Source: an uncultured Candidatus Saccharibacteria bacterium
Lineage (GTDB): Bacteria > Patescibacteriota > Minisyncoccia > Minisyncoccales > CAZKCU01
DNA length: 56,712 nucleotides
Reading direction: 5' to 3'
NCBI GenBank assembly: GCA_964431915.1
Contig: CAYSLI010000002.1
Coordinates: forward strand, 89,503-146,214
Below the pieces are notes generated by a model. The model was not told the DNA's origin. It made no database searches and saw only the letters and a program-made list of their open reading frames with translations. A program made the position numbers and the translations under genes. This document shows positions 50,759 to 54,253 of the stretch, piece after piece. Numbering within the stretch: the first letter of the stretch is position 1; each line of letters opens with the position of its first letter.

Positions 50759-50770
50759 AAATTTTATTTT

Positions 50771-50810
<40 letters not shown>

Positions 50811-51272
50811 GATAAGGCATGCAAGTCGTACGGTCGTGCACATAACTTGTTATGTGTACGATAGTGGCGAACGGGTTAGTAACACGTAGATACAAACCCT
50901 ATTCACGAGTATAACTAATCGAAAGATTAGCTAATCCTCGATGGTCCGAGCATATAATTTTATTATGTGCTCGGTAAAGGTTTCTCAAGAAGCCGGAATG
51001 GGATTGGTCTGCGGCCTATCAGCTTGTTGGTGGGGTAATAGCCCACCAAGGCAATGACGGGTAGGGGAGATGAGAGTCTGTTCCCCAACAAGGGCACTGC
51101 GACACGGGCCCTACTCCTACGGGAGGCAGCAGTCGAGAATATTGGGCAATGGGCGAAAGCCTGACCCTGCGACGCCGCGTGCTCGAAGAAGCCCTTCGGG
51201 GTGTAAAGAGCTTTTCTAAGGGAAGAACCTTCGGGTGACGGTACCTTAGGAATAAGGGGGTGCTAACTCTGT

Positions 51273-52118
51273 GGGTCCAAATACGGACTAGGCGCAGAGC
51301 TCTGGTGGCAACATCGGAGGAGAAAATCTCGCTATATGCTGGAAACTCTATTTATGTCCGCTGAATTTCCTGATATTATTAATATAATATTTCAGGACGC
51401 GTAAATAGACAATCAGCAGGAAACTTTTATTAATTGAATAAAAGGCTCCTCAGAGACTACACGCGAGACCCCGCCAATATCTACAAGTTGTGGCGGGTGA
51501 TGATATAGTCCAGTTAAATCGTATGAATGAAGAAACCAAAGCAATCCTTATAGGATTAATCTTAGGTGATGGTTACCTTACTCCATTTATTGGCGCAAGT
51601 AGTCGATCTCGAATGGAGATAAAAGGCGACAATAAAAGTCTATCTTACCTCAAATGGTTACATTCACGATTAGAACCAATGGGGGTTTCGGATTTGAAGC
51701 CTAAGAAGAATTATCATCAGCATCGTTTCTATACCAAAACTACTGAAGAGATAGGAAAATTAAGAAAGTTATTTTATCCCAGAGGACAAAAAACTGTTCC
51801 ACGAAATATTAAAAAACTTCTTAAAAACCCACTCAGTCTAGCGGTTTGGTATCAAGACGATGGCACCTTGGATTGCCGTAGTAAATACCATTACAATGCA
51901 TCATTTGCTACATATTGTTTTTCGTTCAGCGATTGCAAGTTACTTGCAGAAGCATTGAGAGAAAATTTTAATCTTGATGCAAGAGTATGTAAATGTCAGA
52001 TGCGCGGAAAAATACGCTATCGACTTTACATCACTTCCTCAAGCATGAGTCATTTCATAAGTTTAATTAAGTCTTATGTAAATCCATGCTTTGAGTACAA
52101 AATTCGCGAGTTTAACTA
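51273..52118 (+). mobile_element. Group I intron at 16S position 516
   Basis: 5' exon CTCTGT pairs with the IGS GCAGAG (U.G at the splice site); P (ATGCTGGAAA), Q (AATCAGCAGG), R (TCAGAGACTAC) and S (GATATAGTCC) elements; P3 CTCGC/GCGAG. Confidence 0.92.
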
Positions 52119-52119
52119 G
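51523..52119 (+). CDS. Double-motif LAGLIDADG homing endonuclease in P9 of the group I intron
   Basis: LIGLILGDG and LAVWYQDDG motifs; ATG 51523. Confidence 0.92.
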   Translation: MNEETKAILIGLILGDGYLTPFIGASSRSRMEIKGDNKSLSYLKWLHSRLEPMGVSDLKPKKNYHQHRFYTKTTEEIGKLRKLFYPRGQKTVPRNIKKLLKNPLSLAVWYQDDGTLDCRSKYHYNASFATYCFSFSDCKLLAEALRENFNLDARVCKCQMRGKIRYRLYITSSSMSHFISLIKSYVNPCFEYKIREFN

Positions 52120-52993
52120 CCAGCAGCAGCGGTAATACAGAGCCCCCAAGCGTTATCCGGATTTATTGGGCGTAAAGAGTCTGTAGGCGCCCCGTCAGGT
52201 TTTCTGTTAAATCTCTAGGGCTTAACCTTAGAGCTGCAGAAAAAACCGGTGGGGTAGAGGGCGTTAGAGGCTGATGGAACGGTCGGTGTAGGGGTGAAAT
52301 CCGTTGATATCGACCGGAACACCGAAAGCGAAGGCATTCAGCTGGGGCGACCCTGACGCTGAGAGACGAAAGCGTAGGTAGCGACAAGGATTAGATACCC
52401 TTTTAGTCTACGCTGTAAACGATGGACACTGGCTATCTGAAGTGTCGACCCTTCAGGTGGCGAAGCTAACGCGTTAAGTGTCCCGCCTGGGAAGTACGAC
52501 GGCAACGTTAAAACTCAAAGGAATAGACGGGGACTCACACAAGCGGTGGACCATGTGGCTCAATTCGACAACAAACGAGGAACCTTACCAGGGCTTGACA
52601 AGCTAGTGAAAAGTTGAGGAAACTTGACTCTACCCACAAGGACACTAGCCCAGGTGCTGCATGGTTGTCGTCAGCATGTATCTTGAGACGCTCCCTTAAA
52701 TGGGGTAACATGCGCAACCCTTGCCCTATGTTTAATTTGTCATAGGGGACTGCCTTGGATAACAAGGAGGAAGGTGAGGATGACGCCAAATCAGCATGGC
52801 CCTTTGATGCCCTGGGCTGCACACATGGTACAATGGGGCCGACAATGGGTTGCTAAGCGGTAACGCGGAGCTAATCCCATCAAACGGCCTCTCAGTTCGG
52901 ATTAAGGTCTGCAACTCGACCTTATGAAGCTGGAATCGCTAGTAATCGCCAATCAGCTATGTGGCGATGAATATGTTTCTGAGTCTTGTACTC

Positions 52994-53907
52994 GGGCGAC
53001 CGGCAGCTAATTAAATTAGTTGGTTAGAATCCAACTAGAGAAACCGAAGATTCTCTAAAGCGAAATTACAGGTCAAAACCGCGAGGTTTTGGCTGAAGGG
53101 TGAAAGTAGCATTCTTTAGCTTGAATATTCGTTAAGGCATAGTAAGGTGGTAATCCTGCGAGTACATGGAGAAACCAACTTCGGAGAAAACTTTACTGTG
53201 TGTAGAACATCGAGATAAAGAAGAAATGTTTAATTAGTGACCCGGTGATATCTTGTAATTGTTCCCGAGGTAAGCTACAATATAATTGAGGTTAGTTTAC
53301 CTCAGGATAAAAGATAAGAGTAATTTTATTTCTATGCAATTGCAAGAAGTCAGCAGAGCTCATAGTACCCATAAGGGGAAGGAGCGAATTCAATCGATAA
53401 AAAAACTCCATCCGCAATATTTAGCAGGATTTATAGACGGTGAAGGAAGTTTTTCGGTAAGCATTTACAAAGATGAGAAAATGAGAAATAAGATTTTTGT
53501 CCGCCCGGAGTTTGAAATTGAGTTAAGAGCAGACGATCGCGAAATTCTTCAAAGAATTCAAAAAACCTTAGGATGCGGTAAAATCTATGAATGTAATTAT
53601 GAGAGATATGGTTGGTATCCCCATGTAAAATACAAGGTGAGCAGATTAGATGAAATTTCTGAAATTTTAATCCCATTTTTCGAAAAATGGCCGCTTCAAG
53701 CAAAGAAAGCAAAAGTATTCAAGCACTTTAAACGAATAATTAGAAAGAGAATAAATGGAGAGCATCTTACAGAGAGGGGAGTTGAGGAAATTATTAAATT
53801 GCGCGATAAAATTAGAGTTTTAGGTAAAAAACATCGATTGGAAACCGCTAGGATACGGGAAAACCGTTCGTCCAGTGGTGTGGGGCGATGAACTCATCGA
53901 TCCCAAT
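52994..53907 (+). mobile_element. Group II intron at 16S position ~1397
   Basis: 5' GGGCG; EBS1 GAGTAC (53160-65) complements the exon end GTACTC; DIII AAGTCAGCAGAGCTCATAGTA...GAAGGAGCGAA; DV CCGCTAGGATACGG-GAAA-ACCGTTCGTCCAGTGG; DVI with bulged A 8 nt from the terminal AT. Confidence 0.88.
53335..53891 (+). CDS. Single-motif LAGLIDADG homing endonuclease inside the group II intron
   Basis: YLAGFIDGEGSF...FEI...D..IL..IQKTLGCG...PFFEK.PL..KK; start uncertain (first ATG 53335). Confidence 0.9.
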
Positions 53908-54253
53908 ACCGCCCGTCACATTAAGGGAGCCGGCAGTAGCCGAAGTCCCACGCAAGTGGGCCTAAGCTAAAGTCGGTAACAAGAATGAAGTCGTAACAAG
54001 GCATGGGTAGCGGAAGCTGTCCATGGATCACTACATTTTAAATTTTTCTAAATTTAAACTTAGAAAAATTAGTGTTGACTAGAGTTGAAGTCTGGAATTC
54101 GGGTTTTAACTCTAAGGTGTTGGTCTTGGTACCTTAAAGCGAGACTTTCGGGACAACTCTAAGAAACTAACGGCAATGCCAAAATCCGCACTTTTAAAGT
54201 GCGTTTTTTTGTTGAGTTGATTTTTAATTCAATTTCTGCTATATTATTGCTGT

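Follow-up and report, generated by a model that had tools for sequence, protein, structure and literature searches.

The question raised by this locus is what kind of element interrupts a bacterial 16S ribosomal RNA (rRNA) gene beside the decoding centre, and how an endonuclease gene comes to be read through the catalytic RNA that surrounds it. The window, that is, the whole stretch of DNA analysed, comprises 56,712 nucleotides (nt) from an uncultured Candidatus Saccharibacteria bacterium (assembly GCA_964431915.1, contig CAYSLI010000002.1, positions 89,503 to 146,214), and the host genome assembly amounts to 539 kb and is 96% complete. The 16S rRNA gene was located by Rfam models at about 50765-54030 and carries two large inserts. 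The first (about 51274-52118) belongs to the group I introns and holds a LAGLIDADG_2 open reading frame (ORF) (RF00028, 75 bits; Pfam PF03161), and the second (52994-53907, 914 nt) is the group II intron under study. It lies on the forward (+) strand, as do all of its features given below. The element is very probably a mobile, class-C-like group II intron at 16S 1397|1398 in Patescibacteria, of the kind named "16IS9" in the candidate phyla radiation (CPR) and "rns-1396" in bacteria. A first-pass annotation made from the sequence letters had already called it a group II intron. This identity was borne out by Rfam matches to domains I-IV, by covariation in domain V (DV), domain VI (DVI), the gamma-gamma' pair and the pairing of exon-binding site 1 (EBS1) with intron-binding site 1 (IBS1), by an empty site and by an RNA contig with ligated exons.

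The insertion falls between 16S positions 1397 and 1398, adjoining the decoding centre, and the exon context is ...CUUGUACUC / intron / ACCGCCCGUCAC. The numbering was set from the 1392-1406 primer site (GYACACACCGCCCGU). Since a shift of both splice sites by two bases fits E. coli equally well, the boundaries were tested by comparison with relatives. The 16S rRNA gene of a genome of the same genus (G001) was 97-98% identical, lacked both introns and offered an exact empty site; the blastn breakpoints against it were exactly 52993|53908 and 51273|52119. As G001 has neither the group I nor the group II intron, both introns are recent gains or losses. In addition, 25 of 60 genomes of the same order had the uninterrupted TTGTACTCACCGCCCGTCA, the intron-less reading across the junction being TTGTACTC|ACCGCCCGTCA. 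The first base of the 3' exon by the empty-site comparison is A1398 (53908), the expected intron-binding site 3 (IBS3); no EBS3 was located. About 75 related introns were compared in this study, with subsets of 59, 69, 74 or 77 loci depending on the test. The two bases preceding the intron were constant among them (UC; AC in one), and the last intron bases varied. An alternative placement, with the splice sites moved by 2 nt (GUAC | ... AU-ACCG), leaves a single mismatch to E. coli as well. It was rejected, because GUACUCACCG is found in all 25 intron-less relatives, the final two bases of the intron differ between relatives, and the pairing of EBS1 includes the UC.

The same junction was found in RNA. 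A contig of 161 nt (142553 of run X27) matched 52950-52993 with one mismatch and then continued straight into 53908-54024 with no mismatch, so that its joint skipped 914 bases with the ends GG..AT. G001 differs at two places in the 3' stretch of this contig, and the contig is therefore closer to the organism of the window than to G001. In three metatranscriptomes (96% likeness) the depth over the intron was 0 and the flanking exons were covered; in the salt-marsh DNA run X1, the whole intron was evenly covered at a depth of 9.6. Together, the G001 breakpoints, the 25 intron-less relatives and the RNA joint at 52993|53908 upheld the limits 52994-53907 claimed in the first-pass annotation.

Domain I extended over about 250 nt (52999-53246; RF02001 and minimum free energy (MFE) folding, the outer limits being estimates), and RF02001 matched it at 53075-53236 with 48.9 bits against a gathering score of 32. 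The closing helix, formed by ACCGG (52999-53003) and CCGGU (53242-53246), was compensatory in relatives when judged by eye (CUGG/CCAG, CCACG/CGUGG and CCUUG/CAAGG). EBS1 (GAGUACA, 53160-53166) is situated in a hairpin loop of domain I and pairs with IBS1 (UGUACUC, 52987-52993), the heptanucleotide that closes the 5' exon at 16S position 1397. The pairing itself had been recognised in the first pass, where it was counted as 6/6; it is in fact 7/7. In the great majority of the 59 full-length relatives scanned, GAGUACA or GAGUACG occupied the place of EBS1. Moreover, the relative L064 combined the exon GUACAC with the EBS1 GUGUACA, which is a compensatory EBS1-IBS1 change. The 5' terminal motif was read from the sequence as GGGCG (52994-52998). 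It agrees with the consensus GUGYG in four of the five positions, the exception being a G where U2 is expected, and the AU at the 3' end fits AY; GGGUG, GGGUC, GGAUC and UUUUC were found at the 5' ends of relatives. Just 5' of the domain II hairpin, the window holds an extra hairpin (GAGGU-UAGUUU-ACCUC, 53290-53305) that is missing in most relatives.

A second model, RF01998, matched 53309-53384, which includes domain II (DII), the linker and domain III (DIII), with 49.2 bits (gathering score 35, E 1.4e-7), and it also matched 7 of 8 relatives tested. The DII hairpin (53309-53331), the next element assigned after the end of domain I at 53246, is the first hairpin of this alignment. It is followed by the DII-DIII linker (J2/3, 53332-53358), which contains the conserved AGAAGUCAGCAGAG, the ATG at 53334-53336 and the gamma base A53352. 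DIII (53359-53384) consists of a CUC/GAG basal helix, an AUAGUA/GAAG internal loop and a CCC-AUAA-GGG tip, and its basal helix was compensatory among relatives (UUC/GAA, GUC/GAC and UCC/GGA). The linker-DIII sequence presumably bears a close resemblance to that of the Oceanobacillus iheyensis class C intron.

As the Rfam model for DV and DVI (RF00029) gave nothing, these two domains were established by covariation instead. DV (34 nt, 53845-53878) was drawn by hand as CCGCU-A-GGAU-ACGG-GAAAA-CCGU-UC-GUCC-AGUGG, and the structure was tested on 23 distinct DV sequences out of 74 related loci. Pairing was kept in 322 of 322 cells (14 pairs in the 23 sequences), and 7 of the 14 pairs showed compensatory double changes. 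None of 500 shuffles was as good, and slid registers paired in only 28-52%. The hairpin comprises the CGC triad (53846-53848, with G53847.U53876), an extra bulged A53850, a 2-nt bulge (U53868 C53869) and the loop GAAAA (53859-53863). The triad with its G.U wobble, the U.G pair at the 2-nt bulge and the bulged A53850 were invariant across relatives. The first-pass annotation was correct about the triad and had taken the pentaloop for a GAAA loop.

DVI (53882-53904) was folded by MFE as a hairpin with a single bulged A53900 at position -8. Its basal helix was compensatory between relatives (GGGG/UCCC, GAGA/UCUC and GGAA/UUCC), and a bulged A was found at -8 or -7 in 19 of 20 relatives with a short DVI. 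A53900 is likely the branch point. The intron ends in AAU (53905-53907), with U53907 as gamma', and the end AU was shared by 65 of 74 relatives. The pair A53352-U53907 becomes U-A in L015, L017, L022, L023 and L028; among the six A-ending introns listed, only L020 deviates. The GGGCG start, the AT end, DIII, the CGC triad and the bulged A of DVI were thus all found where the first pass had put them. The CGC triad and the small size fit a class-C-like backbone, the class being taken from PMC13190283. A group of relatives (L036-L078) has a 39-nt DVI that ends in a GUAA-capped hairpin, and 40 of 54 gave no clean single bulged A on MFE folding; this long-DVI sub-lineage may have lost the branch site.

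Several points weigh against the assignment to group II introns. The intron starts with GGGCG instead of GUGYG, and some relatives do not start with G. DV is atypical, having a bulged A in the 5' strand and a pentaloop. RF00029 found no match in the window even at E <= 10. Furthermore, the RNA contig came from a different sample, and a near-identical intron-less strain could be its source. Scanning of RNA runs for the intron itself listed none, and neither an excised form nor a lariat was visible. A covariance search with DV/DVI models had been proposed in the first pass as a check, and it failed with RF00029, also in 8 relatives at the gathering score; the domain I-IV models RF02001 and RF01998 matched instead. 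The miss is likely due to the invariant extra bulged A (53850) and the 5-nt loop, although this is a guess. In four relatives (L012, L016, L020 and L022) the intron 5' end reads UUUUCG, UAAUCG or GAUUCG in place of G-G/U-G; since these introns lack the G1 that is nearly universal in group II, they may be spliced by a different chemistry.

As an alternative, the insert might be an intervening sequence that is not spliced and is removed by ribonucleases (RNases), so that the 16S rRNA is left fragmented. Fragmented bacterial rRNAs with excised intervening sequences are known, and many CPR inserts match no intron model (Tsurumaki 2024, PMC11270868). However, the insert has the full group II catalytic set with covariation, the RNA contig has its exons ligated at the exact junction, and the site is located in the single-stranded neck of the decoding centre. 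RNase excision was therefore regarded as extremely improbable.

Given the canonical branch site, splicing of the intron through a lariat at A53900 is probable; hydrolysis, the route taken in vitro by many class C introns, is also possible. In the latter case, the same element would be released as a linear intron with no lariat at A53900. The class-C-like backbone, with its CGC triad and short domain I, agrees with this, and Liu 2026 (PMC13190283) puts rns-1396 in class IIC. According to PMC4748821, class C introns generally fail in branching in vitro despite a normal-looking branch point. In addition, intron position 2 is G and not U, and some relatives have no G1. On the other hand, the single bulged A at -8 in a compensatory DVI helix, kept in 19 of 20 introns of the sub-lineage of the window, suggests selection for a branch site. 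Splicing by hydrolysis was accordingly considered possible, though somewhat unlikely.

The ORF of the intron (53334-53891) encodes 185 residues and a single-motif LAGLIDADG_1 homing endonuclease (Pfam PF00961, E 6.4e-24). Its domain corresponds to residues 30-135, the LAGLIDADG motif is YLAGFIDGEGSF, and no reverse-transcriptase domain was found with Pfam, in line with the first-pass description of a LAGLIDADG ORF in place of a reverse transcriptase. The ATG is located at 53334-53336 in J2/3; it indeed precedes DIII, and the position 53335 given for it earlier was off by one. The stop TGA (53889-53891) lies in the 5' strand and loop of DVI, within that domain as claimed. A total of 780 homologues (protein clusters) of the enzyme were found, and the halves of I-OnuI in the PDB aligned to residues 24-161 (E 3.6e-37). 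The AlphaFold2 model had a predicted local distance difference test (pLDDT) score above 90 in the core, with helices and strands in the order expected for the alpha-beta-beta-alpha-beta-beta-alpha fold. The pLDDT was below 50 at both ends, over roughly 18 residues following the ATG and roughly 19 at the C-terminus (about 167-185). Residues 1-23 come from J2/3 and DIII, residues about 167-185 come from DV and DVI, and the folded core is formed by residues about 24-161. Both ribozyme-encoded tails, which are rich in Arg and Lys, are thus predicted to be disordered by the model. Domain IV (53385-53844), between DIII and DV, consists wholly of coding sequence for the endonuclease core and has no non-coding 3' remainder. 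DV is translated as ...TARIRENRSSSG; the idea that the 'ETAR' encoded there belongs to the enzyme fold is not supported, because the PDB homologues stop at about residue 161 and the pLDDT is below 50 at about 167-185. The enzyme would act as a homodimer that cuts the intron-less site.

The dual coding of DIII, DV and part of DVI noted in the first pass is real in this copy, and its extent in the family differs between the two ends. At the 5' end, 65 of 69 related loci kept an uninterrupted frame, in phase, between the conserved AGAAGUCAGCAG and the LAGLIDADG motif. The distance between the two took 13 different values from 82 to 139 nt, all equal modulo 3. Likewise, the distal hairpin of DIII measured 9, 15, 18, 27, 39, 45, 48, 60, 63 or 66 nt, and every length is a multiple of 3. 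An ATG stood at a fixed place before AGAAGUCA in most relatives. On these comparisons we conclude that translation through DIII appears to be real and old in the family, and that the coding constraint on DIII is family-wide.

The overlap might be only apparent if translation started 3' of DIII and the upstream open frame were an accident of conserved RNA. The GAAGGAG in the 3' strand of DIII resembles a ribosome-binding site, and the folded core begins at about residue 24, after a disordered N-terminal tail. However, the 16S 3' end of the host (GGAUCACUACAUUU) has no anti-Shine-Dalgarno sequence, and thus an internal start could not use the GGAG of DIII as its ribosome-binding site. There was also no conserved start codon after DIII, and the frame was kept through DIII in 65 of 69 loci, with the 13 lengths equal modulo 3 and the ATG fixed before AGAAGUCA in most relatives. 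An internal start after DIII with GAAGGAG as its binding site was rejected on these grounds, and a merely apparent overlap was judged very improbable. The 3' end of the 16S gene itself was read at 54020-54040 of the window, where CCUCC is missing.

At the 3' end, the position of the stop relative to DV fell into three frame classes of 32, 40 and 5 loci (n = 77). The 32 loci in the frame of the window mostly read through DV and stopped 37-52 nt past the triad. In the second frame (40 of 77), the stop was often the UAG of CGC-UAG-G within DV, or it was found 18 nt before DV, and 6 of the 40 loci read through DV in that other frame. Since the frame over DV varies among loci, read-through of DV is a trait of a sub-lineage and not a requirement. 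The compensatory changes of DV appeared in the protein as linked changes of tail residues (I...SS versus V...LP or SP). These linked amino-acid changes follow the RNA compensation, which indicates that the RNA dictates the peptide. Such varied read-through fits the prediction of "core creep", in which the ORF of a homing endonuclease extends into the core of the ribozyme (Edgell, Chalamcharla & Belfort 2011, PMC3073962). No description of an ORF reading through DV in such introns was found in the literature searched.

The overlap could also be a selected coupling device and not passive creep. As parts of one joint proposal, the folded ribozyme would hide the start and delay the endonuclease until splicing was done, the first ribosome would dismantle the spent ribozyme and prevent its reverse splicing into the exposed 1397/1398 of mature 16S rRNA, and the Arg-rich tails from DIII and DV would be arms for binding nucleic acids. 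The conservation of the DIII frame (65 of 69) and the in-frame indels before DV in the read-through clade are compatible with such a device and do not show it. We consider the coupling device, together with its three parts, quite doubtful, and passive creep is preferred.

The first-pass annotation had further stated that the intron has no maturase of its own. Indeed, no GIIM (group II maturase) domain was found in the host genome, and the sole RVT_1 match was a 359-aa reverse transcriptase. This protein was rejected as a free-standing maturase, because it adjoins bAvd and an FGE-type gene in the layout of a diversity-generating retroelement. The retroelement cassette itself (G000:C1 at about 220.8-223.2 kb; locus L081, 2-2370) is composed of an FGE-sulfatase-type target, the bAvd accessory protein and the 359-aa reverse transcriptase.

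In the absence of a group II maturase in the genome, the role of maturase might fall to the LAGLIDADG protein, perhaps by way of its basic ribozyme-encoded tails, or to a host factor, and the intron would then not be truly self-splicing in vivo. Some LAGLIDADG enzymes of group I introns are maturases (PMC11270868, PMC4424553). The tails are rich in Arg and Lys, and several indels just 5' of DV in the alignment of the read-through clade are all in frame. However, the one group II LAGLIDADG enzyme tested, that of Leptographium, gave no help to splicing (PMC4424553). Moreover, 45 of 77 relatives are in another frame over DV or stop earlier and so lack this DV-encoded tail, and both tails are predicted to be disordered. 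Dependence on a protein was considered unlikely.

The preferred reading, a mobile class-C-like intron, would then work as follows. The intron would excise itself from the 16S rRNA precursor as a ribozyme, with no group II maturase taking part. At the DNA level, the endonuclease would cut the intron-less TTGTACTC|ACCGCCCGTCA, and repair would copy the intron-bearing allele into the site. The endonuclease gene would have crept into the ribozyme core at both ends; its translation would begin at the AUG of the DII-DIII linker and cross DIII, and in this sub-lineage it would also pass through DV into DVI. The stretches encoded by the core would be disordered tails with a sequence dictated by the RNA. 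A ribosome on the gene must unfold the ribozyme, and splicing should therefore precede translation.

No close homologue of the endonuclease was present in 59 species of the same order, the best being 37% identical, and homologues of 66-78% identity occurred at the same 16S site in genomes of Paceibacterota and Gribaldobacteria. The element was found in 119 CPR species genomes by scanning, and all 80 relatives listed were in CPR-type 16S genes at the identical site. Such a patchy distribution fits horizontal spread by homing. A second LAGLIDADG_1 ORF of 165 aa, 42% identical to the studied enzyme, was observed in the own genome (G000:C4:1680-2069) and is probably located in another rRNA intron. 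In addition, a contig labelled as a Thermoplasmatales archaeon (L027, CAZKQS010000118.1) carries a CPR-type bacterial 16S gene with the intron, and the archaeal label is probably a binning error in that genome.

Comparable hybrids of a group II ribozyme and a LAGLIDADG enzyme are on record. Salman et al. (PNAS, 2012) reportedly described the LAGLIDADG group II introns of Thiomargarita. Toor & Zimmerly (2002) and Mullineux et al. (2010) are said to have described fungal mitochondrial rRNA group II introns with LAGLIDADG ORFs, among which the Leptographium rns intron reportedly encodes I-LtrII. The present intron shares with the fungal ones a group II ribozyme with a LAGLIDADG enzyme in an rRNA gene, mobility by DNA cleavage and a relationship to the I-OnuI family. 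The fungal introns belong to class IIB1 (or IIA1), mostly encode double-motif enzymes and, in some families, have the ORF in DIII or DIB; in contrast, the intron studied here has a class-C-like backbone, a single motif and an ORF from J2/3 to DVI. The first-pass annotation had described the combination as rare and known from fungi and giant sulfur bacteria. This did not hold, because its occurrence at this site of CPR 16S genes is already in the literature (PMC11270868) and it was found here in 119 CPR species.

In that study, group II-like inserts in CPR 16S genes were found only at about position 1400 (site 16IS9), and among the 53 inserts, 39 had a LAGLIDADG enzyme and 0 had a reverse transcriptase (Tsurumaki et al. 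2024, J Bacteriol, PMC11270868). The present intron agrees with 16IS9 in the CPR host, the 16S site, the single-domain LAGLIDADG_1 enzyme, the lack of a reverse transcriptase and the identification as group II by Rfam. Nothing essential differs. In that paper the inserts are called no more than 'reminiscent of group II introns'; splice sites, a model of DV and DVI and a study of how the ORF overlaps the ribozyme are missing there and were supplied by the present analysis. The kind of element is therefore already known and common in CPR bacteria.

The second close counterpart is the family rns-1396, defined by a backbone of class C and an enzyme with a single motif that is encoded in DIV (Liu et al. 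2026, GBE, PMC13190283). According to the same work, bacterial LAGLIDADG group II introns are rare and confined to Thiotrichaceae, and its Table S4 lists a 5' exon ...GUACA, a 3' exon CACCGC and an EBS1 containing GUGUAC. Both introns lie in 16S rRNA by the decoding centre and carry in domain IV a LAGLIDADG ORF with one motif, and the class-C-like features seen here, a CGC triad and a domain I of about 250 nt, agree with the class C backbone of rns-1396. They also share an EBS1 of the GUGUAC/GAGUAC type that pairs with GUAC(A/U)C, a comparison made by EBS1 and exon strings only. No EBS2 was reported for rns-1396 (PMC13190283). The hosts differ, being CPR here and Gammaproteobacteria there. Furthermore, the 5' splice site of rns-1396 was placed after 1396 with a 5' terminal linker (PMC13190283), whereas here it falls after 1397 with no linker, as indicated by the empty sites and the EBS1 covariation. 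Since GUGUAC pairs with GUACAC, the splice site of rns-1396 can equally be set after C1397, and the "5' terminal linker" described for it may reflect an ambiguous annotation of C1397. RF00029 misses the whole family, and surveys using that DV/DVI model therefore undercount it. The 2026 catalogue (PMC13190283) appears to overlook a large CPR population of 119 species and 780 protein clusters.

With regard to "core creep" (PMC3073962), the 5' extension by an upstream start, the 3' extension to the next in-frame stop in the core and a length that varies by lineage are all shared. Examples of core creep are known from group I introns, whereas J2/3, DIII, DV and DVI of a group II intron are read here. 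Compared with these systems, only modestly new points are offered by our study, namely that translation across the linker and DIII is conserved and that the further creep, by way of DV into DVI, is lineage-specific. The findings leave the thinking on how such introns work unchanged. The locus provides a well-resolved example of a published class, with splice sites at the level of the base, a comparative DV/DVI model and evidence for translation through a group II catalytic core.

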